A DNA stretch of 39,448 nucleotides, taken from positions 1 through 39,448 of the forward strand of contig JACDGQ010000001.1 of assembly GCA_013821615.1 (NCBI GenBank), read 5' to 3'. The notes beneath the pieces are model-generated. The model was given only the letters and a program-made list of their open reading frames with translations, searched no databases and had not been told where the DNA came from. Source of the DNA: Planctomycetota bacterium. Lineage in GTDB: Bacteria > Planctomycetota > UBA11346. Shown here piece by piece: positions 2,864 through 35,680 of this stretch (its first letter is position 1; the number at the start of each line of letters is the position of its first letter). The translations under genes and the position numbers were made by a program.

Positions 2864-2872
2864 GTAGGTATT

Positions 2873-3904: not shown

Positions 3905-4006
3905 GGGAGGAGCGTCCTGGACTTGGAAGCCGAGGCAATTGAACAATTGCGCTAGGCGATGGTAGGGGCCGCCACACTTGAGGAAGCAGCAAGGACTTGC
4001 GGATGG

Positions 4007-4408
4007 TCAGGATGGACAGTCTAGCGTGTAGACCCACGCCGTGCCGCTGTTCGGGGCGCTCATCACCACGAGGCACCACGACGGATCACCCGGCTGCGGA
4101 TTGTAGGCCCACTGCAACGTCGCCGATCCCGACACTAGTCCGCCGGTCGAGGCGACCAGGACACCCTTGTAGAAGCAGTCGAGCCGGTCCGGGATCGAGT
4201 ACATGTCATAGGTGATCCGCACAAGGCCGGCGGTGGGGCCGAGGCCGTGGCGGGTCTTGGTGGTGCCCTGACCGCCGCTGGCGGTGGCCTGGCCGCAGGG
4301 TTGCGGCGGGCGCTCGTCGAGCGGGCAGACGTTGCACTCCGTGACCGTCAGGCCCGAACAGGCCGAGGGTTTCAGGTCAGGACAGGTGGTGGCGGCGAGG
4401 CACTTCAC
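4007..4408 (-). CDS. Small Cys-rich hypothetical protein (133 aa from GTG 4408)
   Basis: GTG 4408 overlaps the TGA of the upstream glycosyltransferase gene (a GTGA overlap). The N-terminal third carries 7 Cys (CLAATTCPDLKPSACSGLTVTECNVCPLDERPPQPC). The rest is beta-rich (ITYDMYSIPDRLDCFYKGVLVASTGG...). I recognised no family. This is the last gene before the composition drop. Confidence 0.5.
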   Translation of the reverse strand: MKCLAATTCPDLKPSACSGLTVTECNVCPLDERPPQPCGQATASGGQGTTKTRHGLGPTAGLVRITYDMYSIPDRLDCFYKGVLVASTGGLVSGSATLQWAYNPQPGDPSWCLVVMSAPNSGTAWVYTLDCPS

Positions 4409-6632: not shown

Positions 6633-6641
6633 GCGGTGCTC

Positions 6642-7931
6642 CTACAGCCGCGCAAATTTGTCGTGCCAGCCGGCACCGAGGTTGCCGACCGAGACGTTGC
6701 GGGTGATGCGGGCTTCGCAGGTGGTGATCTTGCCGGTGGCCGAGACGGTGATCTGGACCGTGAGCGCGGCTTCGCCGGAGAACAGATTCCGGGTGACGGT
6801 GGTCGTGGTGCCAAAGGCAATGGTCGTCGCTGAGACGTCCCCAGCCGGCTTGGTCTGGGTGATGCTGCCCCACTCGGTGTAGTAACCGGGGACGAAGTTC
6901 CCGTAGATGATGTACCGACCGCCGGAAGCGGTGCGGTTCATGATCACCTGCTGGATGGCCACCACCGCCTGCCAGGCATCGCCGATGGGTGTGAGGAAGA
7001 CCTGGGCATAGGCTGTCTGCTCGATGGATTTCCAGCACGCTTGGCCATAGACCCGGCAGGGATAGATCGGTCCGGGCTGGTTGTAATCCGGGTCGAGATA
7101 GGTCGCCGGGTTCTGCATGAACCACATCGTGTAGCCCAAGGCCCCGTAGACTTCGCAGCCGTACTCGGCGGTTGCGGCTGTGAATTCGAGCTTGAGCGCG
7201 GCGGCGTTTTCGCTGAACCCCAGGGCTAGCGGCTTGAGCTTCAAGAAGAAGCCGAGGTTCTGGCTGGTGCTGCCGGCGGTGAGCACTTGGCCCACCGCTC
7301 CACGGAAGCCGTAGCGACCGACCCAACACGGCACCCGCAAGGGAAGCGGTGCCGCCGCGCTGCCATCCTCCGCGAGCAGCGGACTGTCCACGGTGGCTTT
7401 GGTCGCGTTCCCCGGCGCCTGGATGGTGACATCCGTCAGCGTGCTCAGGCTGTTCCCGCCGTTGGCGGTGAGCCCGGTCACCGCTAGCACCGGCCGATCA
7501 GTACCACCGCGCGTCTGCTGCCCAAGGTAGGCGTTCACCGACCGCGAGGCGAGGTTGCAGTTCCAGGCAGCGAACCCGCTCGCCGTGCTGTGCCGCCAAT
7601 CGAACCACCACCAGGTGGTGAAGACGCGGCCGACCTGCGGCGGGTTGTTCTGCGCCGATTGGACGATCGAGCGGTCGTCCGGGTTTTCCGGATCGCCGGT
7701 GCAGGAGATGCCGACCACATGCGATGGGCTGAGGTCGTACTCGTAGTGCAGCGGCGTGCCGACCGAATCACCGAACGGTTGACGGATCGCGCGGTCGGAG
7801 ATGCCCACCGTCCAGAAGCGGAAAGCTGCGGCGTTGGCCTGCTGTGGAAAATCTCCGGCCCGCAGTCCAAGGGGACGGGGTATGGTCGAACCCAAACCAA
7901 GGTCGAGGAATTGCGGCGTGGCGTCGGTCAT
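6642..7931 (-). CDS. Hypothetical tail or baseplate-region protein (429 aa)
   Basis: The ORF starts 5 nt after the tail-fibre gene stop. It has sensible composition, unlike the overlapping frames. I recognised no family. Confidence 0.5.
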   Translation of the reverse strand: MTDATPQFLDLGLGSTIPRPLGLRAGDFPQQANAAAFRFWTVGISDRAIRQPFGDSVGTPLHYEYDLSPSHVVGISCTGDPENPDDRSIVQSAQNNPPQVGRVFTTWWWFDWRHSTASGFAAWNCNLASRSVNAYLGQQTRGGTDRPVLAVTGLTANGGNSLSTLTDVTIQAPGNATKATVDSPLLAEDGSAAAPLPLRVPCWVGRYGFRGAVGQVLTAGSTSQNLGFFLKLKPLALGFSENAAALKLEFTAATAEYGCEVYGALGYTMWFMQNPATYLDPDYNQPGPIYPCRVYGQACWKSIEQTAYAQVFLTPIGDAWQAVVAIQQVIMNRTASGGRYIIYGNFVPGYYTEWGSITQTKPAGDVSATTIAFGTTTTVTRNLFSGEAALTVQITVSATGKITTCEARITRNVSVGNLGAGWHDKFARL

Positions 7932-7935
7932 CGCA

Positions 7936-10290: not shown

Positions 10291-11096
10291 GAGCCGATCC
10301 CCAAGCCGGCGAACGACGCGAAGGGATAGACCTGCTCGACGTAGACCGCGATTGGCTTCTTGATCAGCACCTTGGCGGCCTGATCCACGTCATCGCCGTA
10401 CTGCACCCACAGGTAGTCCCAGCCGCGCTTCTGGATGTTGCTGATGCTGCCGACCGACAGGTTCGACCGGTTCGGCGAGGCGGCGAACTTGTAGCTGATC
10501 TCCCAGCGGTCGGTCGCGTCCAGGCCACGACGGCTGCCGCTGGCACCGAGAAAGATCACCTCGCCGGCCTGGAAGCCGCGAAACGAAAAGCTGTTCACGG
10601 CGCCGGTCAGTCCGAAGAGTGACAGCTTGTAGCCCTGGGTGACGAAGCTGGGGTCGAGGTAGTGCGTCTCCGAGAACTGGTAGACTGGAACGGTGATGTC
10701 GACGCCGGCGACGTTCTGTCCATCGTAGCCGATCGCTCCGCCGAGGGCGGTGCTCGCCGAGGGGCCGTAACGACCGACCGTCTGCAGTGACTGCGTGATG
10801 TGCTGAGTGCCGCCGCCGGTGTCGAAGGCGAAGGTCGGCTCGGGGTTGTCTTGCTGCGAGGCCTCGGCTGCCTCGTAGGTGACGGTCACCTTCCAAGTCG
10901 TCTCGTTGAGACGCTCCTCCAGCGTGATCGATTTGAGGAACATGCCGGCATAGACCGGCGGCACCTGCGCCAAGGCCAGGGCGCGAACCTCGGCCTCGTC
11001 CACCGCGTCGAGCACGACGTAGTGCATCTCGGCCTTGGGCTTGTCGCTCAGGGTCTCGGTACGGCCGGCGAAGAGTTCGTGGAGCGAGGCGGGCAT
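10287..11096 (-). CDS. Minor tail protein (position of a distal tail protein)
   Basis: The 269-aa ORF lies immediately after the tape measure gene and overlaps the next gene by 4 nt. The assignment is by position only. Confidence 0.45.
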   Translation of the reverse strand: MPASLHELFAGRTETLSDKPKAEMHYVVLDAVDEAEVRALALAQVPPVYAGMFLKSITLEERLNETTWKVTVTYEAAEASQQDNPEPTFAFDTGGGTQHITQSLQTVGRYGPSASTALGGAIGYDGQNVAGVDITVPVYQFSETHYLDPSFVTQGYKLSLFGLTGAVNSFSFRGFQAGEVIFLGASGSRRGLDATDRWEISYKFAASPNRSNLSVGSISNIQKRGWDYLWVQYGDDVDQAAKVLIKKPIAVYVEQVYPFASFAGLGIGS

Positions 11097-11098
11097 GG

Positions 11099-13414
11099 TT
11101 ATCCAAACACCAGTTGGCCGTCCTCGGCAGCGCGCAGCAGTTTCTGGGTATTCTTGGCCGTCTCTTCCGACGCCTTCGCGGTGCGTTCACCGGTGCTGTC
11201 GCCGACACCGAGCTGCCCGATCGCGGCGGCATTGAACGAGCCGGTCACGTCGAGCTTCTGCGCCGCCACGTCGAGCGTCTCGGGCATCCGCGCGAGCTGG
11301 TCGGTGAGCGCCGACAGGTCGGGCAATCCCGTGGCAGCGGGATCTGGAGTCGGCGGGTTGTTGTCGCCCGCGCCGGACATCCGTTCGGTGACCTTGGTGC
11401 GCTGCTGACGCGCCTCGGCCAAGGCCGCGTCCAGTTCCGCGCGTGCCGCATCCACGCCACCGTCACGTTGGGTGAGCTTGTCGGTGAGATCTTGCGAGAG
11501 GCCTTGCAACACCGACTGGCGATCGGCCTCGATCGAGGCGACGCCCTGGTCGCGCGTCTGGCTGCGCTGCGCCCGGCGATCATCCACCGCCTGGTTGTCC
11601 GAGGTCGTCTGCTGCTCGACAGTCAAGGTCAGGCCTTGGTCGGCGATCCCCAGCAGTTCCAGCAGGCTCGCCAGTTTGCTGGCGATGGAGCCGACCGCGT
11701 CGTTCCAAAGCTTCGTAATGCCACCGACCACTGCGTCCCAGGCATCAGCGATGCTGTTCACCACCGTCCAAAACACCTCTTGGACGCCGAACCAAGTCGT
11801 GGCGAAGATTTTGGCAAAGCCGGCAATCGCCGCGTCCCAGAAGTTCAGCAGGAAGCTGGTGCCGCGCTCCCACTCCAGCTTCAACGTCGCCCACACGATC
11901 TTGGCCGCGAGGCCGATATCGCCGGCCGCCAGCGCATCAGCGATGCCACCCCACGCCGCGACCGCGTCGCCTTCCAGCGTCTGGAATCCCGCGCCGAGCA
12001 GCCCGAGTGCCTGCTGGCCGGTCTGGGTCTGCGTGACGATCACCACGCCGAGCGCCACCACGCCAGCGATCACCGCCGCCATCGGCGTCAGTAGCGATCC
12101 AAGAACGCCGCCGAGAAAGATGAACGCCGCTCCTGCCGCGCTGGCGATGGATGCGAGTACGCCCAACCCGGTGCCCACCGCTGACGCGGTGATGCCGAGG
12201 GCGACCAGTCCGAGGCCGACGCTTCCCAGCACCACACCGAGGCCGAGCAGTCCGACCACCAAGCCCTGGTTGCGATCAATCCATCCACGCAGGCCGACCA
12301 GAAACGTCGTCACCGCCTGGGCTGCGTTCAGCAGCGTCGGCGCGAGGGCGCTGCCGATCGCCGTGGCCAGGCCGCCCACCGTGGCGGCGACCCGATCCCA
12401 CGCATCGGCGAGCGCGCCTGCGGCTTCCACTTGGCCGGCGGTCATGCTCGCACCGAGACGACGCGCCTCGCTGCGGAGCGCATCGAGATCCTGAATGACT
12501 GGCAACAGCTTGGTGCCTGATTTTCCGAGCACCGCCATCGCCGCTGCGGCTCGTGCCGTCGGATCGGGAATGCGACGAAGGGCTGTCGCCACCGCCAGAA
12601 ATTGCTGCTCAGGCGTGAGCGCCTTGAGGCGATCCGCCGACAGGCCGAGGCCAGCGAACGCGGCGCGGGTCTGATCGCTCGCGCCGAGCACGGAGGACAG
12701 CGACTTGGTGAGGCCGGACAACGCGCCCTGGGCGGTGGTGAGCGCGCTTGCATCCGGTGCCGGTACAGCCGTCGGTGGTGGCGATCCCGCCGCTGCTGGC
12801 GCAGCGCGGCCAACAGTGGGTGCGCCCACGGCGGCCAACGCTGCACCCAGCCGCTTGGTGTCGCCAGCGATCAGCGCCAACCGTGCGCCGGCTTCGCCCA
12901 ACACCGACACCGCCAGCGCCGCGCGCTTGCCGGGATCCGCGATGCCTGCCAAGGCTGCGGCCACTGCCTGCACGGCACCTGCTGGACCGGCTGCGGCGAG
13001 ATCTTCTGCCTTCAGCCCGAGTGCGCCGAGCGCCTCGATGGCGGCCGGTGCATCGGCTCCGAGATCACCGAGACGCTTCTGCAGGATGCGGACCGACGCT
13101 TCGACATCGTCGAGCGACGCGCCGGATAACCCGGCGGCGTACCCCAACTCGGACAGTGTCTGCACCGGCACGCCGGTGCGCTGCGCCATTTCGGTGAGCG
13201 CGTCACCGGTCTCGGCGAAGTGCTTGGTCGCCAAGGCCAGCGGCGCCAGGATCGCCGCACCGGCGGCGGCTACCTGGGTGCCCAGCGTCCGCACCGACGT
13301 GCCGAACGCCTGGAGCTTCCGCTGCGCGGAGCGCAGACCGGCGGCGAGTTTGCTGTCGTCGGCGGTCAACTCGACGTAGGCGCGCCCGGCGCGGATGCCT
13401 CCGGCGCTGGCCAC
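11099..13414 (-). CDS. Tail tape measure protein
   Basis: The 771-aa protein is Ala/Gly-rich and largely helical. Its N-terminal motif is typical of tape measure proteins (GRAYVELTADDSKLAAGLRSAQRKLQAFG ... LTEMAQRTGVPVQTLSELGYAAGLSGASLDDVEASV). It has a central hydrophobic stretch and sits after the tail chaperone genes. Confidence 0.85.
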   Translation of the reverse strand: MASAGGIRAGRAYVELTADDSKLAAGLRSAQRKLQAFGTSVRTLGTQVAAAGAAILAPLALATKHFAETGDALTEMAQRTGVPVQTLSELGYAAGLSGASLDDVEASVRILQKRLGDLGADAPAAIEALGALGLKAEDLAAAGPAGAVQAVAAALAGIADPGKRAALAVSVLGEAGARLALIAGDTKRLGAALAAVGAPTVGRAAPAAAGSPPPTAVPAPDASALTTAQGALSGLTKSLSSVLGASDQTRAAFAGLGLSADRLKALTPEQQFLAVATALRRIPDPTARAAAAMAVLGKSGTKLLPVIQDLDALRSEARRLGASMTAGQVEAAGALADAWDRVAATVGGLATAIGSALAPTLLNAAQAVTTFLVGLRGWIDRNQGLVVGLLGLGVVLGSVGLGLVALGITASAVGTGLGVLASIASAAGAAFIFLGGVLGSLLTPMAAVIAGVVALGVVIVTQTQTGQQALGLLGAGFQTLEGDAVAAWGGIADALAAGDIGLAAKIVWATLKLEWERGTSFLLNFWDAAIAGFAKIFATTWFGVQEVFWTVVNSIADAWDAVVGGITKLWNDAVGSIASKLASLLELLGIADQGLTLTVEQQTTSDNQAVDDRRAQRSQTRDQGVASIEADRQSVLQGLSQDLTDKLTQRDGGVDAARAELDAALAEARQQRTKVTERMSGAGDNNPPTPDPAATGLPDLSALTDQLARMPETLDVAAQKLDVTGSFNAAAIGQLGVGDSTGERTAKASEETAKNTQKLLRAAEDGQLVFG

Positions 13415-13704
13415 TACGGACGCGCCTTGGGTTGGATGCCCGCCGCATCCAGGTTGCGATAGTAGTCGAGCGTCGGCTCATCCAGCGCGACCATGCCTTG
13501 GAGTCGAGCCTCGCCGGGCAGCCAGCCGCCTTTGCCATCGGGCAGCACCACCTGGATCGGTCGGTCATCCACGATCCGGGCAGGCGTGCCCATTTGCGCC
13601 CAGACCACTTCACGGGACAGGGCCACCCGTTCGGGAAAGATCCCGCAGCCGGTCAGGGCGAGCGAGACGATCAGCAGCAGGAGCGAGAGGGTCGTTGATC
13701 GCAC
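13414..13704 (-). CDS. Lipoprotein (96 aa)
   Basis: The N-terminus MRSTTLSLLLLIVSLALTGC is a signal peptide with a lipobox (LTGC). The stop overlaps the tape measure GTG start by 1 nt. Confidence 0.65.
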   Translation of the reverse strand: MRSTTLSLLLLIVSLALTGCGIFPERVALSREVVWAQMGTPARIVDDRPIQVVLPDGKGGWLPGEARLQGMVALDEPTLDYYRNLDAAGIQPKARP

Positions 13705-13798
13705 GGGCGGTCTCCGTTCGGACAGGGTTGAAGACGTCGAGGAAGAGCCGCGCGATGCCGACGAGTGCCGGCACCAACGCGGAGATGATGGCGGCCAT
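13610..13798 (-). CDS. Possible small N-terminally anchored membrane protein (62 aa)
   Basis: The N-terminus MAAIISALVPALVGIARLFL is hydrophobic. The ORF starts 1 nt after the upstream gene stop. It overlaps the lipoprotein gene by 95 nt in another frame. Whether it is coding is uncertain. Confidence 0.3.
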   Translation of the reverse strand: MAAIISALVPALVGIARLFLDVFNPVRTETARAINDPLAPAADRLARPDRLRDLSRTGGPVP

Positions 13799-13799
13799 G

Positions 13800-14099
13800 T
13801 CAGCCTCCCGTCTTCGGCTGACTCCCTGCGGTTTTCACCTGGGCGCGGGCAGCGGTGTAGCCGAGCGCGGCCAGCACCGACAGAACGCCACCGATGATCT
13901 GGGCGACGATGCCGCCGTCGTGGATGGCGCCGCTCGCCATCACGACGCCGAGCAGCGTGGCGATGCTGGAGAGCCAGAACTCGGTGGTCTGGATGCCCGG
14001 CTTCGGCGGGACAGTGGCCGGGGTCGACGCGGCACCGGAATCCGGAGCGGCATCCTGGGTCCGGGTGATGATGTGGGTGGTCTGGTCGTTGGCGGGCAT
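13800..14099 (-). CDS. Two-TM membrane protein (99 aa, holin-like topology)
   Basis: I chose ATG 14099 (MPANDQ...) because the longer track ORF 13800..14396 has an Arg-rich, implausible N-terminus. Two hydrophobic helices are present: FWLSSIATLLGVVMASGAI and IVAQIIGGVLSVLAALGYTA. Confidence 0.55.
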   Translation of the reverse strand: MPANDQTTHIITRTQDAAPDSGAASTPATVPPKPGIQTTEFWLSSIATLLGVVMASGAIHDGGIVAQIIGGVLSVLAALGYTAARAQVKTAGSQPKTGG

Positions 14100-14101
14100 G
14101 G

Positions 14102-14326
14102 TCAGGTTCCTGTGGTTGGGGGTGAAGAAACAGCAGACACGAAGAGATCGCGCAGGACGGTGAGATCCCGCGTGCGCGGCACGGACTCGCGCGCGTGGTC
14201 GGGATGGAAGTCCGCCGGGGTGTAAGCCCGGTGGCGTTTGGGATCGCGGTGGCAGTTGGCGATCAGGGCCATCAGCGTGGCGGTGTGATTCCACCGCGAC
14301 GCGTCGGCTCCCGCCGCCATCGCCAC
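14102..14326 (-). CDS. Candidate -1 frameshift extension of the tail assembly chaperone (gpT-like part of a G/GT pair)
   Basis: This frame is -1 relative to the upstream chaperone ORF and stays open well upstream of the chaperone stop at 14341. The sequence ...WNHTATLMALIANCHRDPKRHRAYTPADFHP resembles the T-part motif seen in many siphovirus GT proteins. The position directly before the tape measure region also fits. Confidence 0.5.
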   Translation of the reverse strand: MAMAAGADASRWNHTATLMALIANCHRDPKRHRAYTPADFHPDHARESVPRTRDLTVLRDLFVSAVSSPPTTGT

Positions 14327-14340
14327 CAGTTCCCGCAGGG

Positions 14341-14829
14341 TCAGGCCGCCGGCATCGGTTCCGGCGGCGCCGGCGAGTCGCCAGATGAGATCCCACGCGG
14401 AGGTGCGGCGAATGCGGCCTGCACCGCCGCCGCCAGCTCCGGGCTGTCGAGTCTGAGTTCGGCCGCCGCCAGCGCCTGACGCTGCCAGGCGTTCAGCTTC
14501 TCCAGCGCCTTGGTCAGCACCCGGCGCTTCGGGCTCGGGAAAAAACCGACGAGACCCTCCAGCAGCGCGGTGGTTGCGGCGTCGATGACGTCGCCGGCGA
14601 GCGCGCGGCCGAAATCGCCATCGTTGACCTGCTTGGCTTCGGCCTCGGGGCGGATGACCGCGAACAGCACGTCGCAGAGCAGCACCGGGTCTGAGATCAG
14701 GCGATCGATGAGTGTGCCACCGGCCACGTCGAGCAGATCGACGTTGGTGGTGTTGCGCACCCGACGCACGGTGTCGACTGTGATATTGATGGTCCAGACG
14801 CGGCCGGTGGTATCGGTGAACGTGGGCAT
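14341..14829 (-). CDS. Tail assembly chaperone (gpG-like)
   Basis: I chose ATG 14829 (MPTFTDTTGRVWTINITV...), giving 162 aa. The gene lies between the major tail protein and the tape measure. The track ORF 14341..15147 has an implausible N-terminal extension that overlaps the major tail gene. Confidence 0.6.
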   Translation of the reverse strand: MPTFTDTTGRVWTINITVDTVRRVRNTTNVDLLDVAGGTLIDRLISDPVLLCDVLFAVIRPEAEAKQVNDGDFGRALAGDVIDAATTALLEGLVGFFPSPKRRVLTKALEKLNAWQRQALAAAELRLDSPELAAAVQAAFAAPPRGISSGDSPAPPEPMPAA

Positions 14830-14849
14830 GGGAGTTTTCCTGACGAGGA

Positions 14850-15299
14850 TCAGAGGGTGATCCACGCCGGGGGCGTGGCGGAATAGCCGGGCTTGGCAGT
14901 GACTTTCACCAACGCCGCCTCTTCCAGCGGCTGGGTGAACTCCATGTTGGTGATCATCGCATCGCAGCTCAGGCCCTGGGTGCCGTTGGTGCCGGAGGCG
15001 GGAATGAGTCCGTCGAGCACGCGCAGGCCGATGACCGCGTTGGCGAAATACGCCGTGCGGATGGCGGTGAAGCCGGCGTCCGCAGTGTCGTAGATCATCT
15101 CGAACTCGATGTTGCCGCTCTTGAGCGTGGCGAGGCTGGCCTTCCACCCGTTGTTGGCGCGCGTGGTGACATCGGCATCGCCACCCTCGATGGTGAGCGT
15201 CACGTCCTTGGCGTTACCCAGGATGGTCCAGGCGTTGGCCGACGCCTGGCCACCGGTCTTGTAGTAGAGCTTGCAGTCGAGGCCGAGTTTGGCGGGCAT
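14850..15299 (-). CDS. Major tail protein (TP901-1/phi13-like family pattern)
   Basis: The 149-aa sequence is MPAKLGLDCKLYYKTGG...WTILGNAKDVTLTIEGGDADVTTRANNGWKASLATLKSGNIEFEMIYD. This matches the conserved pattern of that major tail family. Confidence 0.8.
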   Translation of the reverse strand: MPAKLGLDCKLYYKTGGQASANAWTILGNAKDVTLTIEGGDADVTTRANNGWKASLATLKSGNIEFEMIYDTADAGFTAIRTAYFANAVIGLRVLDGLIPASGTNGTQGLSCDAMITNMEFTQPLEEAALVKVTAKPGYSATPPAWITL

Positions 15300-15311
15300 G
15301 GATGGATTCCT

Positions 15312-15746
15312 TCAGCGGATGGAGTTGCGCCAGTGCGGCGGCAGACGTGGCACCTCGGCGTCGAAGGCCGGGCGCATGAACGGACGGGGCCGGTAGTGGG
15401 CGAGGTAGCTGCGGCCCCAGCGGCTGCGCGTCGCGGTGCCGCCATATTCCAGCAGCGGCGGTGTGTCGCCTTGGCCCTTGTTGAGTCGTACCGGGCCGAT
15501 CACCACCGAGCGGCGATCCCGGTCCCACGCGAAGTACAGATGCTGGCGCAGCAGGCCGACGTGCGACGACGGCGGCGAACCAGGCGGGCTGGGATTCGCG
15601 CGCGGTCGGATCGAGGTCTTCGCCCGCTGCCGGACGAAGGCCCCGAAGCGCGACAGCACCTTGCGCTCCGCGACCGTGGTGGCGTTTTGCACCACCGCCC
15701 GGTCGAAGAATCCGGCCTTCGCCTGCTTCAACGTCAGTCCGATCAC
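15312..15746 (-). CDS. Tail completion or neck protein (HK97 gp10-like by position and weak pattern)
   Basis: GTG 15746 forms a GTGA overlap with the upstream stop, giving 144 aa (VIGLTLKQAKAGFFDRAVVQNATTVAERKVLSRFGAFVRQRAK...). Confidence 0.45.
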   Translation of the reverse strand: MIGLTLKQAKAGFFDRAVVQNATTVAERKVLSRFGAFVRQRAKTSIRPRANPSPPGSPPSSHVGLLRQHLYFAWDRDRRSVVIGPVRLNKGQGDTPPLLEYGGTATRSRWGRSYLAHYRPRPFMRPAFDAEVPRLPPHWRNSIR

Positions 15747-16282
15747 GGACCGACTCCCACACCCTGGATCACGATCGACGAGCGCGGCGGCCCTGGCCAG
15801 ATCTGCGCCAAGAGCGGCCCGTTGTTGCGGAGTTCGACGTGCATGATTTCGCCCGGCGAGAGCTGAACGAGGTGCGACGCCTGGGCGCTGATCGGGAAGA
15901 GCTGCTGACTGGTGAGCACGAAGGACTGCTCGTTCTCCACGATCTGCGAGTTGCGCATGAAGCGCAGGCTGATGCCGCCGGTTTGCGCACCAACCGGCTG
16001 GAACAGCAGGTTCACCTGGAAGAGGTAGGTGCCGGGCAGCGGCGGCTGGAAGCGCCAGATGGCCCCGGTCCGGATGGACTGGTGCGAATCCACCTCGACC
16101 ACGCCGAAGTCGAGCGGCTGCCAGATGCCCGGTGGCGGCACGGGCAACGGTGGCAGCACCGCGCGTGCGTACACCGCGAGCGCCGACGTTGCGGGATCGA
16201 AGCCGCCTGGCGGACCCGGAGGACCGGGCGGTCCCTGAATGCCGCCGCCGTTGCCGACCGAGCCGATGTTGCCCATCACCAT
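15743..16282 (-). CDS. Collagen-like triplet plus C1q/TNF-like jelly-roll candidate (179 aa)
   Basis: ATG 16282 gives MVMGNIGSVGNGGGIQGPPGPPGPPGG. This is followed by ~140 aa with a beta-sandwich-like pattern (WRFQPPLPGTYLFQVNLLF ... ISLRFMRNSQIV ... GEIMHVELRN). Confidence 0.55.
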   Translation of the reverse strand: MVMGNIGSVGNGGGIQGPPGPPGPPGGFDPATSALAVYARAVLPPLPVPPPGIWQPLDFGVVEVDSHQSIRTGAIWRFQPPLPGTYLFQVNLLFQPVGAQTGGISLRFMRNSQIVENEQSFVLTSQQLFPISAQASHLVQLSPGEIMHVELRNNGPLLAQIWPGPPRSSIVIQGVGVGP

Positions 16283-16961: not shown

Positions 16962-17274
16962 GAATGGCTCCTTCCGTGACGGCGGTGATCCGGCGGCGGG
17001 TGGGCTCTTCGTTTGCCTCTAGCCAGGTGGCCATGCGCTCCATCGCGGTGGCGTTACGCTCCAGGGTCTTCACTAGCGTCTCGCGGATCCAGCGCTGCTG
17101 GGCGTCGATGGCGGTGGCCATGCGCTTCTCGCGCTGGTGGTCGCGCCACAGAACGTAGGCAACGACCACACCGGCGAGTCCCCACTGCGCCCACAGCGCA
17201 GGCTCGGGCGCATCCATCGGAACCGCTGCGGCGAGCAGCCCGATCATCGCGGTCTTGGCCAGGGTTTCGATCAC
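16945..17274 (-). CDS. Two-TM membrane protein with a charged helical C-terminus (holin-like, 109 aa)
   Basis: GTG 17274 forms a GTGA overlap with the upstream stop. Hydrophobic segments are TAMIGLLAAAVPM and WGLAGVVVAYVLW. The tail is charged (RDHQREKRMATAIDAQQRWIRETL...). Confidence 0.45.
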   Translation of the reverse strand: MIETLAKTAMIGLLAAAVPMDAPEPALWAQWGLAGVVVAYVLWRDHQREKRMATAIDAQQRWIRETLVKTLERNATAMERMATWLEANEEPTRRRITAVTEGAIHGNDR

Positions 17275-17663
17275 AGGGTCTCCGTCTTCACGAGCTTGGT
17301 GTGGATGCGGTAGCAGGCGCGGTTCGGGTCTGACCACCGCCACACCGGTTCGTGGCCGGGAGCGATGACCTCGTAGTGATGGCGCGTCGTCGTGTCGTCT
17401 TCGATCACTCGGTCACCGCGCTGCGGCTGCTGGAAGGCAGGCAGTGCGGCGAGATCGGTGGCGGCGATGAGGAAGTCGCGCGCCTCGATCCGTTCGGTGA
17501 TCCCCGGCCCGACATCGAGCCGGAATATGGTCGTACCCACCGTGGCGGAGGCAGGGACCTCCTGAGTGGCACGGCGATAGCGGACTGGCTTGGTGAGGAA
17601 CTGCTGGCGTTGCCGCTCCAGCCAGGCCAGGCCCTGTCCCAGGACATCAGCGAGAACGTCCAT
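17271..17663 (-). CDS. Head-tail adaptor or head closure protein (130 aa)
   Basis: The gene follows the DUF2190 gene. Its size and pattern are typical of connector proteins. Confidence 0.45.
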   Translation of the reverse strand: MDVLADVLGQGLAWLERQRQQFLTKPVRYRRATQEVPASATVGTTIFRLDVGPGITERIEARDFLIAATDLAALPAFQQPQRGDRVIEDDTTTRHHYEVIAPGHEPVWRWSDPNRACYRIHTKLVKTETL

Positions 17664-17670
17664 GCCGTCC

Positions 17671-18003
17671 TCAGTGGTTCAGCCGCACGCGCACCGTGGT
17701 CGCGGTGTCGAGGGCCTCGGCGGCGGCGATGCCGATCGGCAGCACGCCGATGAGCGCCCCGTCAATTCCCGCGCGCTGGCCAGCGGGATCCCAGAACAGG
17801 CGCCTGCCCTGGGCGATCAGCAGACCGGGCGCGCGCGGCACCTCGAACACGCCGCACATGGCCAGGCTGCCGAGGCTGCCAGCGGGGATGGCGCGGTGGG
17901 CGATGCCGATGGCATCGCCGATCACCACCACCGATCCCACCGGCAGATCGGCCGCCGGAATGTGATCGAGGTACTCGCCGTCGTGGATGAAAGTCGCAGG
18001 CAT
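17671..18003 (-). CDS. DUF2190-family phage head-associated protein
   Basis: The sequence is MPATFIHDGEYLDHIPAADLPVGSVVVIGDAIGIAHRAIPAGSLGSLAMCGVFEVPRAPG...LFWDPAG...TTVRVRLN. This matches the DUF2190 pattern, a family often mis-annotated as a RecA/RadA-like recombinase. Confidence 0.75.
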   Translation of the reverse strand: MPATFIHDGEYLDHIPAADLPVGSVVVIGDAIGIAHRAIPAGSLGSLAMCGVFEVPRAPGLLIAQGRRLFWDPAGQRAGIDGALIGVLPIGIAAAEALDTATTVRVRLNH

Positions 18004-18068: not shown

Positions 18069-19709
18069 TTACGCTTCGCCCTTGGCCTTCAGGCCGGCGC
18101 GCGGCTCCTGCAGAGCGACGCCGAAGTCGTGGTAGCCGCGCATCTGCACGCCGAGGGTGGCGAAGTCGGCCTCGGCGGTTTCGATCACCGGCGCTTCCTG
18201 GCCGTTGAGGAAGACCACCTCGATGGCCGGCAGGTCGTTGGGATCGGCCAGCAGATACCACGCCTTGGACGAGTTGCCGGGGTACTGCGGATTCGACAGG
18301 TAGCGGCTGATCTCGACGCGGAACTTGCCCTGGTGCGGGTTGGCCACCGGGTACTTGGCGTTGGCCGTGGTCTCGCGCAGTTCCAGCGACTTAAACAACT
18401 GGGTGCCGATTGCGGAGAGCGACGGCGGCGCCAGCACGATCGCCGGCATGACGCCCAGCGGCTTGCCGTCGGGATCGACCTGCTCGAGGAAGGCCTGCTC
18501 GGCCTTGGTCAGCCCGTCGATCGACAGCGCGGTGTCGGCGCCGGTGAGGAGATTCTTGTTCGCGGCGGTGAAGAACGCGGCGTGGTTCAGGAACACGGTC
18601 CAGAACACGTCGTTGATCTTCAGGCCGGCGCCGCGCCCGAGCTTACGCGGCACCAGGGTGATCGCGCCGAGGTCGTCGTTGATCAGGTCACGCCGATCGA
18701 TCGAGAACGGCATGTTCAGGCAGCGGGCGATCTCGTTGAGGATCTCGTGTTTGAACTCGCCGTAGGTGGTCGTGGGCTGCTCGGCCCGCATCTGCTCCAT
18801 CTTCCAACCGCCGGGCATCGTCAGCAGCGCGCGCTTCTCCAACTCAATGGTGTCCATCGGTTCGACCTGGTCGGCCTCACCTCCGGCCGGCGCGTCGGTG
18901 TAGACGATGCCGGCGTAGTCGGCGGCAGTCTCGGCCGCCGCGATCACCGCCAGGGTGTAGCGACGCAGTTGTGCGAAGAGCGGAATGGCTGGCGTGATCT
19001 CCGGCACGCCCCGGCGCTGGCCCGGTCGGTCGGGACGGAAAAGATGGATCATCGACGCGACCGGGATGCGGTCGTAGTCCTGGCGCATCGAACCGCGTGG
19101 GCTGCCCGGATGCTCCGTGAGGACATGGTACTCGACCGCGTTCCCGGCCGCATCAAAGACGATGCCGTCGACGGCGTTGACCGGCAGCGACGCGACTCCC
19201 GGCGTCGATACCTGATCCGCCTCGATCAACTTGAGGTCGAGTTGCACCGGCGTGGCGAGCGCAGCGTTCGAGGTCAGCAGCGCGAAGGCCTCGCCGTCCT
19301 CCGCCATCGCAACGCGCATGCAGCGCAGCTTCTCAGCCAGATCGACCGTGCGCGCCCAATCGACGAAGGACCGTTCGATGAAGCGCGCATCGTCGCCGCT
19401 GATGCCCATAAGCTGCAAGCGTGGCCCAGTGCCGACGCAGTCGTTGGCAAGCGTGAGCACGATGCCGCGCGCGTAGCTGTTGTTGGCGACCTCGTAACGG
19501 GCACGGTTACGGAGGGTCCGGCGGACGGCCGGCGACGCCGCAGCGTCAGCCGAGAGCCCGTCCGCCAGTGCCCAATGTCTGCGATTGTCATGGTTGGTCT
19601 GGGCCGCGTCGTAGCGGGCGCGGACCACCGTTCGCCGCCCCCCAGGAGCGGCGGCACGCGTGCGGCCGATGGCGCGAACGCCCTCGATGAGCCGACCGAC
19701 GATGCTCAC
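18069..19709 (-). CDS. Chimeric ORF joining a lambda-family portal N-terminal ~340 aa in frame to the C-terminal ~205 aa of a Mu gpT-like major head protein. It is probably a deletion remnant.
   Basis: The N-terminus RYDAAQTNHDNRRHWALADGLSADAAASPAVRRTLRNRARYEVANNSYARGIVLTLANDCVGTGPRLQ is the lambda-type portal signature, and this similarity runs to ...EILNEIARCLNMPF. After that, SIDRRDLINDDLGAITLVPRKLGRGAGLKINDVFWTVFL parallels the gpT segment I recall from Haemophilus FluMu (ISRDDFEDDNLGIYAPIFQEMGRSAAVQPDELIFKLL). The C-terminus ...FATLGVQMRGYHDFGVAL is also capsid-like. The GTG start overlaps the gpW-like stop. Confidence 0.7.
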   Translation of the reverse strand: MSIVGRLIEGVRAIGRTRAAAPGGRRTVVRARYDAAQTNHDNRRHWALADGLSADAAASPAVRRTLRNRARYEVANNSYARGIVLTLANDCVGTGPRLQLMGISGDDARFIERSFVDWARTVDLAEKLRCMRVAMAEDGEAFALLTSNAALATPVQLDLKLIEADQVSTPGVASLPVNAVDGIVFDAAGNAVEYHVLTEHPGSPRGSMRQDYDRIPVASMIHLFRPDRPGQRRGVPEITPAIPLFAQLRRYTLAVIAAAETAADYAGIVYTDAPAGGEADQVEPMDTIELEKRALLTMPGGWKMEQMRAEQPTTTYGEFKHEILNEIARCLNMPFSIDRRDLINDDLGAITLVPRKLGRGAGLKINDVFWTVFLNHAAFFTAANKNLLTGADTALSIDGLTKAEQAFLEQVDPDGKPLGVMPAIVLAPPSLSAIGTQLFKSLELRETTANAKYPVANPHQGKFRVEISRYLSNPQYPGNSSKAWYLLADPNDLPAIEVVFLNGQEAPVIETAEADFATLGVQMRGYHDFGVALQEPRAGLKAKGEA

Positions 19710-19909
19710 GCCGCCCCCGGAGGGACGAGTTTGCTGATGACGATGCCCTTGCCCCGCGACCGCACCGCGCGCTTGGCCGCCAGGTAACGGTCGGCGGCGA
19801 TCTGGTCGGGCAGGCTGTGCTGCTCGACCGATCCAGCATCGCCCTGGGCCTTCTTGGGACCCTGGGCGTTGTGCTCGATTGCCTGCTCGGTTGGGGTTGG
19901 GTCGGGCAC
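19706..19909 (-). CDS. gpW-like small head-tail joining protein
   Basis: The 67-aa ORF lies between the terminase and portal genes. Its C-terminus RSRGKGIVISKLVPPGAA resembles the lambda W tail (RRRGPAGFYV). The start is GTG with GAGGAA 8 nt upstream. Confidence 0.5.
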   Translation of the reverse strand: MPDPTPTEQAIEHNAQGPKKAQGDAGSVEQHSLPDQIAADRYLAAKRAVRSRGKGIVISKLVPPGAA

Positions 19910-19970: not shown

Positions 19971-22241
19971 CTACCGCCGTTCACTGCGCATTGCCGACAA
20001 CTTCAGACGAGACTTTGGAACACCGCTCAGCTTGACGTCGGTGCTGGGCAGACCGACGCCAAGCATCGACGCGCCCACCGCGCATCCGACGACTCCATCG
20101 AACCAATGGTTATCGAATCCTTCGGGCCGCAGGCGCCACTCATCGACCACGCGTCCACGACCTTCGGTCCGCACCCGGTACTCGGCGGTCAGGTGTTCGG
20201 CGATCAGGCGATGCCGCTCCGGATCATGACCTGGAAGCGACAAGCAGCCGGGATCACCCATCGGCACCGCGAGGCGGGTGTGGATGAACGACTTCCAGTG
20301 GTTGGTGTCGTAAAGCAGATGGCGGACGGTGTGCCTGCCGACCACCGCTGGGATGCGCCAATGGAGACCCGTGCGATCGCCGCGTTTGCGGCGGTACTCG
20401 GTGAATGGAATCGACGCTGCGCCGACGAAGCGGCCGTGGCTGGGCGTGATGAGCGCGGTGTGCGGCGACTGCCGGCAGAATTGGTACACCACGTCGGTGC
20501 TCTGACCCCAATTCGCATCGATCAGCAAGCGCTCGATGGTCAACTCAGCTCCATCGTCCCGGCACCAACGCCGTCCCATCAACTGGCTGGTGGCCGCTTC
20601 GAGGCCGGCGTAAATCTGTCCTTCCAGACCGGCGCCCTTGGTGGCCGCCGCCATGGTGATGCGCAGATCCCGCAGGGTGTAATAGGTCCGGCGCTGGTCC
20701 GGCCAGGTTCCGTAGTCGAGGACGTAGCCGGTGAAATCATCACTCCAGCCGCACACCACCCAGAACAGCGCCTTCTGCTGCACGTCGATGAAGGCCGTGA
20801 GGTGGCTGGCATCGAGCGGCACCACGCCGCGCTCGTGACCGTTGATCTTTGCCATGATCAGATCTGCGGTGAGTGCATCGTTTTCCTCGCTGACCTCGGG
20901 CAGCGGCTGGTTCTGGTACTCGGCCCAGAATGCCACTTCGCCCTGGAGCTTGAGATTCATTGCGTGTTGGAGCGCTGAGACTTCGTCGTGGTTGTAGCGC
21001 GCCTCCCAGGCGACGCGGGCACCGGCATCCATCTCGACGCGGTGGGCCACGTAGTACGCGGTGGCATCCGCCAGTCCGCGCCCAGCACGCATGCCGTCAC
21101 CACGCAACTTGGCGTATTCTTCCCAGCGCTTCGTCGCCGTGGGGAAGCTGTAGACCATCTGCGTCCGCTCACCGTTCCATTCCGGATGGAGGTTCCGGTC
21201 GAGAATCCGGTCGGCCATGTCGGCTGGCCGAATCACCGTGCAGGGCATCATCCCAGCGATCTTCTTGCCGGGACCAGCCAAGCCGAGGACCGCACCAGAC
21301 AAGATCGCTTCGCGGTGCTGGCACTGACTTGGTGAGCGTGCGCTCTCGTCGGTCTGTGGATCGTCGAGGACGACAAGCGATGGACGCACCGCACGGCCAT
21401 CCGGCCGCTTGAACTTCATCCCACGGATGCGACCGGTGATGCCGGCCACCTTGATGATCGCTCCGCTGGCTTTCGATCCTGGGATGGTGGGAAGAATGAT
21501 CTCCTTGGCGGTCCAACCGATGTGCGTGCGGCTGCCTCGGAAGAGCTGGCCGTTGGCGCGGTGGGAGATGCCCTCCAAGGCGTGGATGGGATAGACCGCC
21601 TCGGGGAAATCCGCGAGCAGCAGCTCGTTGATCTCCAACTCGGTCTTCAGCGAATCCAGCATGTCCGAGGCGTGCTGTTCATCGGAGCCGATGAGGCAAA
21701 CGAACTCACGGTGCCCGTAGAGGATCGCCCACAGGCAGGCGCATTCTGCGATTGTGGTTTTTCCGGATCCGCGCGGCATGGCGAGCGCGAACAGGCCGCC
21801 TTGCAGGACGGACTCTTCGACCTTGGCGATGACACGCAGGTGATCTTCTGACCAGCCGAGGTGGAAGACCTCTGGAAAATAGGATTCGCAGAACGCACGA
21901 AAGCTGCGCTCGGCAGTCGCCCGACGCGGCGGGTTCTCTACCGGCGGCAGGTCACCGATGTCGCGGCCCGACTCCGACTTCAAGCGGTCGCGGTCGGCAG
22001 TCGCTTCGCGGTGCGTGGCGTAGCCGCCATCGGGTATGCGCTGCGCCGCTGGTGCATGCACCTGGTCCATGAGCCACGCCAAGTAGCGCAGAAGGTCAAC
22101 ACTGCGGCCGTCGCCGATGCGGAAGCCCGCGCGCGTGCGGTGGCGATGGAGCTGCCGCTCGGAGATGACTGCTCCGAGCGCCGAGCTGTTGAGCAGCCGC
22201 GCGAGATCGGCCGGCTTGAGGTGATGTGGATCAACCGGCAT
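19971..22241 (-). CDS. Terminase large subunit (GpA-type)
   Basis: Walker A is AMPRGSGKTT and Walker B is LVVLDDPQTDES. The C-terminal nuclease region reads LIDANWGQSTD ... GFDNHWFDGVVGCAVGASMLG. I prefer ATG 22241 (MPVDPHH). The first ~60 aa look like a Nu1-type winged-helix segment. Confidence 0.9.
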   Translation of the reverse strand: MPVDPHHLKPADLARLLNSSALGAVISERQLHRHRTRAGFRIGDGRSVDLLRYLAWLMDQVHAPAAQRIPDGGYATHREATADRDRLKSESGRDIGDLPPVENPPRRATAERSFRAFCESYFPEVFHLGWSEDHLRVIAKVEESVLQGGLFALAMPRGSGKTTIAECACLWAILYGHREFVCLIGSDEQHASDMLDSLKTELEINELLLADFPEAVYPIHALEGISHRANGQLFRGSRTHIGWTAKEIILPTIPGSKASGAIIKVAGITGRIRGMKFKRPDGRAVRPSLVVLDDPQTDESARSPSQCQHREAILSGAVLGLAGPGKKIAGMMPCTVIRPADMADRILDRNLHPEWNGERTQMVYSFPTATKRWEEYAKLRGDGMRAGRGLADATAYYVAHRVEMDAGARVAWEARYNHDEVSALQHAMNLKLQGEVAFWAEYQNQPLPEVSEENDALTADLIMAKINGHERGVVPLDASHLTAFIDVQQKALFWVVCGWSDDFTGYVLDYGTWPDQRRTYYTLRDLRITMAAATKGAGLEGQIYAGLEAATSQLMGRRWCRDDGAELTIERLLIDANWGQSTDVVYQFCRQSPHTALITPSHGRFVGAASIPFTEYRRKRGDRTGLHWRIPAVVGRHTVRHLLYDTNHWKSFIHTRLAVPMGDPGCLSLPGHDPERHRLIAEHLTAEYRVRTEGRGRVVDEWRLRPEGFDNHWFDGVVGCAVGASMLGVGLPSTDVKLSGVPKSRLKLSAMRSERR

Positions 22242-22470
22242 GGCCGCCTTCCCGGTGCGCGAGATCACGCACCAGCCAAGCGCCATAGGCGATGAGGTTG
22301 ATGGTGGCATCAGCGTTCTGCGGTGCGCCTGCCGCGAGGTCTGCGCGCACCGTGTCCACCGAGGCCTGCCGCGAGCCGCTGCGCTTCAGCAGCAGGACCA
22401 CGGCCTCCACCGACAGGGCGGTGAGACGGGCTCCGCCGGCATCCGGGGCGTTGGGCTTATCAAGTACCAT
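22231..22470 (-). CDS. Possible terminase small subunit or DNA-recognition protein (79 aa)
   Basis: ATG 22470 gives MVLDKPNAPDAGGARLTALSVEAVVLLLKRSGSRQASVDTVRADLAAGAPQN...INLIAYGAWLV. The HTH-like pattern is similar to the N-terminus of TerL. The ORF overlaps the TerL start by 11 nt. Confidence 0.4.
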   Translation of the reverse strand: MVLDKPNAPDAGGARLTALSVEAVVLLLKRSGSRQASVDTVRADLAAGAPQNADATINLIAYGAWLVRDLAHREGGHAG

Positions 22471-33811: not shown

Positions 33812-34081
33812 ATGCTCCAGCATCATTCCGCTCCGCCGGAACCGGCAGACATCACTGGATGTCCGCCGGAGTCCCGGCAACAGATGAAGGACCAAGGGGC
33901 GAATCCTCGCCCCTTGGCGGATGCCTGGATCAGCGACGACCTCCTTGCGGAAGCCATCGCCGTCTGGTCCCGGCTCTACCGCCGACCGATCGGCAAGGAG
34001 GAAGCCGTGGAAATGCTGCAGAACGTCAAACGCGCAGGCGAGGTGATCTACCGAATCGCTCGGGAGCAGGCTCAACCATGA
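33812..34081 (+). CDS. Hypothetical small protein, possibly a recombination directionality or regulatory factor by position
   Basis: The stop overlaps the recombinase ATG (an ATGA overlap). A shorter start at MKDQG (33884) is possible. I recognised no family. Confidence 0.4.
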   Translation: MLQHHSAPPEPADITGCPPESRQQMKDQGANPRPLADAWISDDLLAEAIAVWSRLYRRPIGKEEAVEMLQNVKRAGEVIYRIAREQAQP

Positions 34082-35613
34082 AGGTGCTGATCTGGACACG
34101 TGTCAGCTCCCGAGAACAGCGCGAAGGCTATTCCATCGACGCGCAGATGCGGGTCTGTCGTGAACGGGCCGAGCGGCAGGGCTGGACGGTGCTCCGCGAG
34201 TTTCAGGTTGCCGAGTCAGCCAAGCGCGGCGCCGAACGACTCGCCTTCAACGAGATGTTCGCGTGGGTGCGGAGGAACGCGAAACGGGAAGGCCTGGAGG
34301 TCATCCTCGCCCACAAGCTCGACCGCGTCTGCCGCAACATGAAGGACGCAGTCCGCCTGCAGGAATTGGAGGACCAATGCGGGGTCAAGCTGGCCTTCGT
34401 CGACAACCAGTTCGGCACCGGCGCATCTGGGGTGCTGTCGTTCAACGTGATGGCGGCAGTGGCGCAGTATTACAGCGACAATCTCCGGTCGGAGGTCCTC
34501 AAGGGTATGGAGGAGAAGATCCGCCAGGGCTGGCCGATGGGCCGGGCGAGCTACGGCTACAAGAATGTTCCCGACAGGTCCTGCCCGGTGGTGCCTCATC
34601 CCGAGAAGGCCAAGACCGTGGTGCAGATCTTCGACTGGTTCTCGACCGGCCAGTACACCCTGGATGCCCTGGGTGACCGCTTGCTCGCCGAGGGCCATGA
34701 GTTCCGGACGACCTACCCTCGGTTCAACCGCACCGCCTTGGCCTACATCCTCCACAACCGGGGGTACATCGGCGAGATCGTCCACCGGGGGGTCTCACAC
34801 GTCGCCAAGTTCCAACCGCTGGTCTCACGGACGACGTTCGATGCCTGCCAGGTGGTGCTGAAGGGACGCAACCGCCGTTCATCCACCCCAGACCTGCCCT
34901 ACCAAGGCGGCGTCTTCCGGTGCGCCCATTGCGGGGCGATGATGACCGGCGAGCGGATCGTCCGCCGGCACAACGACGGCACCGAGGCGCGCCACGTCTA
35001 CTACCGGTGCGCCAACAACGCCCCGCCGGCGGAGCACCCGAAGGTGCGCTGGAAAGCCGCCGACCTGGAAGCTGCCGTTGTCGCCGAGTTGGAGACCCTG
35101 CGCATCCACGACGAAGGACACGCCCAGTTGATTCGCAGCACCCTCAAGGCCGCCTTTGCCGACGTGGCCAAGGCTGAGGAGGATCGCCGCCGCGTTTTGT
35201 TGAAACGCCAAAGCGAGTTGAAGGGGAGACTGGATCGACTGCTCAACGCCTACCTCGAAGGGGTGATCGAGCAGGCTCCGTTCTCGGTCAAGCAGGGCGA
35301 GCTTCGTGTGGAATTAGCCGATATTTCCAGGCAACTTGAGGAGCGGCCGACCTTCGATCCCAAGCGCGGGGAACTGGCCCTGGGGCTCTTCGACTTCATG
35401 CAGAACGCCGCGAATCTGTGGCGGCGTTCAAACATGGAGCAAAGGCGTGAGCTTTTGGCTGCGATAGCTTTGAACCGCAATGTTAGCGACGTAAAGCTTG
35501 TGCTAGAAAAGAGAAAGCCCTTCGACATTGCTGTCGAAGGGCAAGTATTCCATTTTGGTCGGACCGACAAGATTCGAACTTGCGACCTCTACCACCCCAA
35601 GGTAGCGCTCTAA
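34078..35613 (+). CDS. Large serine recombinase (integrase)
   Basis: MKVLIWTRVSSREQREGYSIDAQ carries the catalytic Ser motif of the resolvase domain. The recombinase domain (WPMGRASYGYKN) follows. The Zn-ribbon reads CAHCGAMMTGE...YYRCAN, and a coiled-coil region follows it. The last 58 nt are antisense to tRNA-Pro (...RTDKIRTCDLYHPKVAL). Confidence 0.9.
   Translation: MKVLIWTRVSSREQREGYSIDAQMRVCRERAERQGWTVLREFQVAESAKRGAERLAFNEMFAWVRRNAKREGLEVILAHKLDRVCRNMKDAVRLQELEDQCGVKLAFVDNQFGTGASGVLSFNVMAAVAQYYSDNLRSEVLKGMEEKIRQGWPMGRASYGYKNVPDRSCPVVPHPEKAKTVVQIFDWFSTGQYTLDALGDRLLAEGHEFRTTYPRFNRTALAYILHNRGYIGEIVHRGVSHVAKFQPLVSRTTFDACQVVLKGRNRRSSTPDLPYQGGVFRCAHCGAMMTGERIVRRHNDGTEARHVYYRCANNAPPAEHPKVRWKAADLEAAVVAELETLRIHDEGHAQLIRSTLKAAFADVAKAEEDRRRVLLKRQSELKGRLDRLLNAYLEGVIEQAPFSVKQGELRVELADISRQLEERPTFDPKRGELALGLFDFMQNAANLWRRSNMEQRRELLAAIALNRNVSDVKLVLEKRKPFDIAVEGQVFHFGRTDKIRTCDLYHPKVAL
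35501..35541 (-). terminator. Intrinsic terminator-like hairpin 15 nt downstream of the tRNA-Pro 3' end, lying inside the recombinase ORF
   Basis: On the minus strand CCCTTCGACA-gcaa-TGTCGAAGGG forms a perfect 10-bp stem. It is followed by CTTTCTCTTTTCT. Confidence 0.6.
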
Positions 35614-35634
35614 TCCAGGCTGAGCTACGGTCCG
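35556..35634 (-). tRNA. tRNA-Pro (anticodon GGG) with encoded CCA
   Basis: I folded it by hand as CGGACCG TA GCTC AGCCTGGATTA GAGC G CTACC TTGGGGT GGTAG AGGTC GCAAG TTCGAAT CTTGT CGGTCCG A CCA. All four stems pair. U33 and G37 flank the GGG anticodon, and the T-loop is TTCGAAT. Confidence 0.9.
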
Positions 35635-35680
35635 ATGCGAGGGTTGGGTTTTTATGAAGTTAGCGGGGCTTGGTCAATGG

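Follow-up and report, generated by a model that had tools for sequence, protein, structure and literature searches.

A probable deletion allele in a planctomycete prophage joins a portal gene in frame to the end of a protease/capsid gene, within the core of a site occupied by serine-recombinase elements in relatives

The stretch of DNA analyzed here (39,448 nucleotides, referred to throughout as the window) is the whole of contig C576 of a 4.3-Mb Planctomycetota metagenome-assembled genome (MAG) that consists of 832 contigs with a median length of 3.9 kb and is 69% complete. It contains a siphovirus-like prophage whose head region includes, in place of separate portal and protease/capsid genes, a single open reading frame (ORF) of 546 amino acids (aa) in which the beginning of a portal runs directly into the end of a capsid protein. 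The features that make up this chimera are as follows.

18069..19709, minus strand: portal::protease-capsid chimeric ORF, in frame, 546 aa, with matches in Pfam, PHROG, and NCBIfam.
18705..19709, minus strand: portal part, aa 1-335 (PF05136 profile positions 10-326 of 354; 98% aa identity to the portal of the intact relative L008 over 335 codons).
18069..18704, minus strand: capsid part, aa 336-546 plus stop (PF25209 profile positions 82-261 of 262; NF045541 model positions 429-633).
18704..18705, minus strand: deletion junction (...ATGCCGTTC joined to TCGATCGATCGG...), with 1,882 nt lost relative to the intact relative L009 and 1,906 nt relative to L008.
18705..18710, minus strand: CCGTTC, the first 6 nt of the 8-bp core CCGTTCAA, which is the attB core of serine-recombinase elements.

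A first-pass annotation of the window, made from the letters alone, had proposed an in-frame portal::major-capsid chimera produced by deletion, and this is borne out by Pfam, PHROG, and NCBIfam profiles and by comparison with L008 and L009. Residues 49-337 match Phage_portal_2 (PF05136; E = 6.8e-53, 180.5 bits against a cut-off of 32.9), and residues 335-541 match Phage_capsid_4 (PF25209; E = 9e-27), with a weak Mu-like_gpT match nested in the capsid part (E = 1.4e-4). In PHROG, the first part is a portal (phrog_21) and the second part corresponds to the C-terminal third of "major head and protease" proteins (phrog_4523, positions 440-643 of 644; phrog_133, positions 462-667 of 668). The NCBIfam models portal_lambda (TIGR01539; aa 43-341, model positions 7-326 of 457, 102.7 bits) and scaf_prot_MCP2 (NF045541, a protease/capsid fusion; aa 335-544, model positions 429-633 of 634, 130 bits) both score under their full-length cut-offs of 172.7 and 525, as expected for fragments. 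A sequence search of the PDB with the chimera returned a portal chain as its sole match (8gtd_A, E = 3e-6).

The portal part represents the N-terminal two-thirds of a lambda-family portal (PF05136 and TIGR01539; lambda gpB): in both models, the alignment of window aa 43-341 extends over the first ~326 positions, leaving ~130 positions uncovered at the end of TIGR01539, and relative to the intact portals of 502-507 aa, 167-172 residues are gone from the C-terminus. It matches about 7,000 portals of 480-510 aa, each of which covers only 62% of the query. Intact portals run on past the break point as ...CLNMPFNIAAGNSSGYNYASGRLD, and the conserved continuation, in which CLNMPF is followed by N(I/V)AAGNSSGYNYASGRLDHQ and ~165 further residues, is absent from the window; there, the window reads CLNMPF followed by SIDRRDLINDDLG, at a position where 99 of the best 120 matches have NVAA or NIAA. 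The capsid part corresponds to the C-terminal 211 aa of a prohead protease/scaffold/major-capsid fusion protein of 676-679 aa (NF045541, phrog_4523, phrog_133, and PF25209), aligning to the C-terminal third of such proteins, with the first two-thirds (465-468 aa) missing. Among matches of 650-715 aa, the best are the C-termini of P0121 (679 aa) and P0122 (676 aa), both at 98% identity, so that the end of the chimera is indeed capsid, as the first-pass annotation held, and not the C-terminus of a portal. P0121, which comes from an intact relative, spans NF045541 62-633 and PF25209 7-261, whereas the window protein reaches only 429-633 and 82-261; by this coverage, the N-terminal prohead protease and the linker are absent, and the capsid domain is incomplete. 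The window protein is a truncated member of the lambda-family portals, and it qualifies neither as a functional portal nor as a functional protease/capsid fusion because the C-terminal part that defines the former and the N-terminal part that defines the latter are missing. A 40-aa stretch identical over its full length (100%) to the chimera C-terminus (aa 507-546) stands alone in G360, a genome of the window's bacterial family (C99:1324-1443), where it represents a tiny capsid remnant.

Alignments of DNA and protein place the switch between aa 335 and 336 (CLNMPF to SIDRRD), corresponding to window positions 18705 and 18704; the abrupt switch itself had been recognized earlier, although it was placed at about aa 340. 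Alignments of the window to L001, L003, L008, L009, L010, and C577 (a second contig of the same MAG) all break at this point. The junction DNA reads ...CTGAACATGCCGTTC joined to TCGATCGATCGGCGTGAC..., the portal DNA of intact relatives continues past the break as AACATCGCGG, and further portal sequence absent from the window (...TTCAACATCGCGG) is this intact continuation. On the capsid side, the intact DNA of L008 reads ...GATGCTT immediately before TCGATCGATCGG. The stretch TCGATCGATCGG (18693-18704), which had been read as a short self-repeat that might have mediated the deletion, is the native capsid sequence of L008, and that proposal fails: microhomology at the junction amounts to 0 nt with an L008-like parent (CTT meeting TCG) and to at most 2 nt if the Leu codon was CTC. 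A 3-nt TTC microhomology was also dropped, as an L008-like parent gives a blunt joint.

Aligning the locus with intact relatives, the comparison suggested at the outset for sizing the deletion, gives a loss of 1,882-1,906 nt; the segment missing relative to L009 is 1603-3484, in coordinates in which the L009 portal starts at 598 and the capsid at 2090. Both lengths equal 1 mod 3; the two genes overlap with a frame offset of +1, which a loss of this length cancels, leaving a single 546-aa ORF. As read from these alignments, the deletion spans portal codon 335 to approximately codon 466-469 of the protease/capsid gene (~1.9 kb), and the predicted product retains neither the final third of the portal nor any protease or scaffold linker, and its capsid domain is short by about 95 residues at the N-terminus. 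The gene order in intact relatives is TerL (large terminase), a 67-aa gene, portal (502-507 aa), protease/scaffold/capsid (676-709 aa), cement, and head-tail joining. Loss of the portal C-terminus, the protease/scaffold, and the capsid N-terminus had been correctly anticipated, although as a loss from separate genes; this phage family encodes protease, scaffold, and capsid in a single gene, and the chimera thus unites only two neighboring genes.

At the nucleotide level, the window is 94-96% identical to L008 and 91-94% identical to L009 and L010, and L001 and L003 are also collinear with it. The two sides of the junction are similarly diverged from L008 (94.1% and 95.6%), and the 2,434 nt downstream of the junction align to L008 without an indel. 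The 94-96% identity to L008 holds over 19933-16271, from the 67-aa gene to an 85-aa gene, and ends at a sharp mosaic boundary at 16271, beyond which the tail genes (9127-15775) are only 68-70% identical to L008. The genes around the chimera and at the right end of the prophage are as follows.

19706..19909, minus strand: 67-aa gene upstream of the portal, in the position of lambda W; no family match; overlaps the chimera start and is conserved in L001, L008, and L009.
19971..22310, minus strand: large terminase TerL, 779 aa, intact (PF20454, phrog_38; 94% aa identity to the TerL of L001).
17671..18003, minus strand: cement/decoration protein, 110 aa, intact (PF09956; collinear with L008, no indels).
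17271..17663, minus strand: head-tail joining protein, 130 aa, intact (PF25138, E = 1.3e-38).
33859..35613, plus strand: the prophage's own large serine recombinase, adjoining tRNA-Pro.
35556-35634, minus strand: tRNA-Pro, beside the prophage recombinase at the right end.
35681-39103: AcrB, a host pump, at the right end of the window.

The chimera, like the portal of lambda, follows TerL and a small gene in the W position, and the tail tube gene is likewise in phage order after the connector. TerL is full length, and the cement and head-tail joining proteins are intact, in agreement with the first-pass view that all neighbors are intact, and the integrase, replication, terminase, and tail genes of the prophage are intact as well. 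That view also had no other ORF of capsid size between the chimera and the connector genes, and no further capsid of this family occurs within the window. The element is an integrated prophage of the Planctomycetota MAG, because its right end presents a serine recombinase, tRNA-Pro, and AcrB. The host side of this end matches the tRNA-Pro loci of 28 of 30 genomes of the family, with similarity to the empty tRNA-Pro loci of related genomes (G360 and G407) beginning near 35504. In G411, the 3' end of a related integrase lies at the equivalent tRNA-Pro (C289:15279-15515; compare window 35400-35640), and the site has therefore been used repeatedly by this integrase family.

Two further loci carry related head genes. 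Positions 1-8855 of C577, which belongs to the window's MAG (G000), hold a second, intact head module (portal, protease/capsid, and cement) with 75-82% nucleotide identity to that of the window, and it could supply head proteins in trans if housed in the same cell. L002 (5356-10174; ENA scaffold_12455) retains the 1.9-kb region and has a portal split into 330 and 170 aa; its nucleotide identity to the window is 86-91% from TerL to portal and 87-90% from the capsid C-terminus on through the head-completion genes. The ORFs called in L002 include a capsid fragment of just 179 aa and no TerL, and the locus is either a further decaying copy or a poor assembly.

The chimera is a one-off. It forms a cluster of one member on one contig among 5.8 billion proteins and is the only 546-aa protein with both domains at the junction; no match to it was found in the four same-genus genomes searched. 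The first-pass interpretation depended on full-length homologues being uncommon, and this holds: 58 of 400 other genomes of the phylum have matches, in every one of which portal matches are separate from capsid matches, and wherever one contig carries both genes (24 other loci), the two parts lie 1.6-2.1 kb apart. Two in-frame portal::protease/capsid fusions with other junctions do occur in the family, namely, P0035 (667 aa, portal aa 1-~136; L013:4538-6541, GCA_964526295.1) and P0049 (431 aa, portal aa 1-~100; L014:2426-3721), which shows that such deletions recur in decaying copies. At L013, a Fic gene lies between TerL and the small gene before the fusion, and an acetyltransferase gene follows the fusion.

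Substitution patterns date the event. Relative to L008, the portal part has a ratio of nonsynonymous to synonymous substitution rates (dN/dS) of 0.043 and the capsid part one of 0.051, much like the neighboring genes (0.02-0.13), and when changes are polarized with outgroups, the window branch has 32 synonymous and 3 nonsynonymous changes, compared with 29 and 4 on the L008 branch. Given the 32:3 ratio, the genes were working and under purifying selection for nearly the whole of the window branch, and from the substitution counts, we estimate that less than 5-8% of the branch can postdate the deletion. The deletion is recent, since the flanking genes are intact and the chimera displays no relaxation of constraint. 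Of the two explanations originally offered for the clean frame, a recent event or selection for the chimera, the former stands and suffices, and the latter is not required: the protein is a singleton, and its ratio is the same as that of the L008 branch.

We are confident that the chimera is a real deletion allele of an integrated prophage, in which a single loss of ~1.9 kb fused the portal gene to the protease/capsid gene, and we infer that its product could act as neither portal nor capsid and that the prophage could not build heads alone. Several points weigh against this interpretation. The loss of function is deduced from missing domains; an intact copy could be unbinned in a MAG of this completeness and fragmentation; the contig is possibly chimeric, or a minority allele was assembled as the main path; and a degenerate pattern of the junction had 0 matches in JGI metagenome contigs and 0 in IMG/VR viral contigs, which leaves the junction without independent confirmation. 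If a chimeric read or a collapsed path had joined the portal and capsid genes of an intact phage, the fragmented, short-read-like nature of the MAG, the presence of a second related phage (C577) in the bin, the location of the portal side at the edge of a highly conserved block of DNA, a place at which assembly graphs branch, and the restriction of the junction to this one assembly would all be accounted for. Such an artifact is nonetheless improbable: the two sides share at most 2 nt and, hence, no common k-mer for a de Bruijn misjoin, conservation of the capsid gene extends upstream of the junction, so there is no graph hub on that side, the contig runs for 18-20 kb on either side of the junction, L008 is equally distant from both sides, the reading frame is kept across the join, and no near-identical copy of the missing 1.9 kb exists in the MAG, where C577 alone matches the stretch, at 73-79%.

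We regard it as very unlikely that the chimera is instead a selected functional protein, such as a dominant-negative decoy that would disrupt head assembly in related phages when they superinfect. The fusion is in frame, it keeps the portal start and is translationally coupled to the upstream gene, its dN/dS is low, the family contains the two other in-frame fusions P0035 and P0049, and a related intact phage shares the bin. However, low dN/dS is fully explained by recency, one-third of deletions are in frame by chance, the junction has no conserved relatives, including in the same-genus genomes, and the three fusions differ in their junctions (aa ~100, ~136, and 335), noting that the search could see in-frame events only. 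Taken jointly, an assembly artifact, a selected functional chimera, and origins that we have not modeled are left with a small share of the probability. The real deletion allele resembles defective (cryptic) prophages in being an integrated prophage with an internal deletion of essential head functions, recent and free of other decay; it differs from them in that the deletion is in frame and produces one long hybrid ORF, not truncated pseudogenes, and in that its portal end lies on a recombinase target site.

That target site is occupied in relatives. The core CCGTTCAA is present at the equivalent spot in the intact portals (attB) of L001, L003, L008, and L009, and in both attL and attR of L036; L047 has a variant attR. 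On L036 (JGI Ga0484953_004809), the order is portal 5' part, CCGTTCAA, a 9,923-bp insert, CCGTTCAA, portal 3' part, protease/capsid, and cement, with the element (96-10026) situated at portal codon 335/336. The insert encodes an HTH_17 protein, a P4-family primase (TIGR01613, E = 1e-85), four unknown genes, and a 606-aa large serine recombinase that abuts its right end; when the insert is removed in silico and its flanks are joined, the portal reads through in one frame. In a second sample (L047), a recombinase of this type (93% identical) lies beside the portal 3' part. Elsewhere, L011, L012, L015, and L017/L028 join ...ATGCCGTTC to a common motif of ~30-40 nt (AAGnnGGGCGTTCAAGAGGCGG...), which is followed on L017/L028 by a Prim-Pol/D5 primase and on L012 by a fragment homologous to the AAA_25 gene of L025. 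The portals P0069, P0093, and P0055 end at the residue at which the window breaks, and a query with the portal C-terminus recovers many fragments of 155-170 aa, at least 10 clusters of which begin with ..HVFRSPFN or ..SVS(R/W)TPFN.

Element-adjacent portals are polyphyletic in the portal tree (FastTree; supports not inspected), which suggests that elements have integrated repeatedly into portals and is the ground on which one ancient insertion was rejected as the sole explanation. A ribozyme or intron at the break hot spot was also discarded (no Rfam match in L011 or L012), as was an artifactual assembly hub, which covers at most L029, with its 72-nt tip, and not L036, where both ends and the 9.9 kb between them are assembled. 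In L029 (2055-2127; JGI Ga0180433_10129787), the portal is broken at the same nucleotide as in the window (...ATGCCCTTC joined to TACCACGTC...) and runs into the antisense interior of a TPR-like gene, with 72 nt left before the end of the contig. A second aberrant joint at the att core is one possible reading of this locus, and an assembly tip is another.

The L036 element, which may be a satellite or an intervening element that targets the phage portal gene, can be compared with known serine-recombinase intervening elements (Bacillus subtilis skin/SpoIVCA, SPbeta/SprA in spsM, and Anabaena fdxN/XisF), a comparison that concerns the elements in relatives and not the window. Like these, the 9.9-kb element has a terminal large serine recombinase (with a weak XisF/Ccr match) and interrupts a gene at one fixed codon, between two copies of an 8-bp repeat, and its removal restores the frame. 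Unlike these, it splits a phage portal inside a prophage and carries a P4-type primase, as P4-like satellites do, and its excision is putative. No element with a phage portal gene as its target was described in the literature searched, an absence of matches that is not proof of novelty.

The break in the window (CCGTTC followed by TCG) falls inside the 8-bp core, and two accounts of this position compete. The one to which we lean is an ordinary illegitimate deletion, by replication slippage or end joining, whose position at the att core is coincidental. This agrees with the failure to detect any element, recombinase, primase, or end motif in the window or in the MAG (69% complete), with the distribution of L036 recombinase homologues (4 of 401 genomes of the phylum, all from another family, and 0 of 23 in the window's family), with the different break positions of the other fusions in the family, and with the capsid-side site, which is not att-like (16-17 of 48 matches, against a mean of 12.4 and standard deviation of 3.1, ranking ~220-430 among 4,364 positions). 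It sits less well with the odds that a random end in a gene of ~1.5 kb would hit the 8-bp core (~0.5% of the time), with the further odd joint at the same nucleotide in L029, and with the expectation that a cut at a TC crossover dinucleotide would leave exactly an end in CCGTTC.

A recombinase-seeded origin of the deletion, through a recombinase-made break or an aberrant excision, is possible and is held only tentatively here. Under this account, an element or its recombinase would have cut the window's portal at the TC of CCGTTCAA, and loss of the element along with 1.9 kb of head genes would then have produced the chimera, which might, with similar reserve, be regarded as the scar of a conflict between a prophage and a hyperparasitic mobile element. 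The portal-splitting elements, as part of the same tentative account and independently of the window, look like an undescribed satellite-like family that holds the portal gene of its helper hostage. Two narrower versions were set aside: a pseudo-att site on the capsid side is unsupported by the att scoring, and the window's own integrase is a poor candidate, being only 26% identical to the L036 recombinase, with CCGTTCAA absent from the window and CGTTCAA, at 35425, lying ~80 nt from the start of host similarity near 35504. The att region of that integrase does not make use of the core.

Inactivation of prophages by internal deletion is textbook biology, and the chimera is a fresh instance of this known decay. 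As one deletion of 1.9 kb disarms the prophage, removing portal function, protease, scaffold, and capsid together and leaving the rest intact, it provides a clean and datable example, and it is also a warning to annotators that a "portal" of normal length can conceal a capsid fragment. We judge the chimera itself to be of low to moderate interest and the coincidence of the breakpoint with the att core to be the part worth following, as the breakpoint led to serine-recombinase/primase elements that repeatedly occupy one portal codon in planctomycete prophages. If these elements excise upon induction, they would constitute a prophage-in-prophage switch or a satellite of a kind without report in the literature searched, and the window would, if this is true, show that relationship between element and prophage gone wrong.

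Two other arrangements were noted. The left-end motif of the elements (AAGnnGGGCGTTCAnGAGGCGGTCTTTT...) occurs five times in the Planctomycetota MAG G402 (VGZC01), at C36:38522, C56:29937, C71:11543 (minus strand), C33:43648 (minus strand), and C43:6665 (L019-L023). The left flanks of these sites are unrelated, one of them lying directly upstream of an rsmB-like gene, the right sides are partly shared, and the C56 copy is a 245-nt internally deleted derivative; the motif is a candidate for an element end, a promoter, or a miniature inverted-repeat transposable element. In Phycisphaerae MAGs (L037/L038/L039:7475-12494), a widespread arrangement listed in 64 collection blocks consists of a tyrosine integrase, a PDDEXK nuclease, a small HNH gene whose stop overlaps ...TGCCTGAAC, a 166-aa portal 3' fragment (starting MPFN), a 670-aa protease/capsid gene, and three cement-domain genes, with no TerL or portal 5' part nearby and with the break ~17 nt upstream of the att core.

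At the opposite end of the window from the tRNA-Pro, the first 126-134 nt (window 1-133) are a repeat that broke the assembly there: contigs C365, C206, and C85 carry it at their ends with 98.5-100% identity. Positions 2-3946 hold a low-GC AAA ATPase/subtilase pair.

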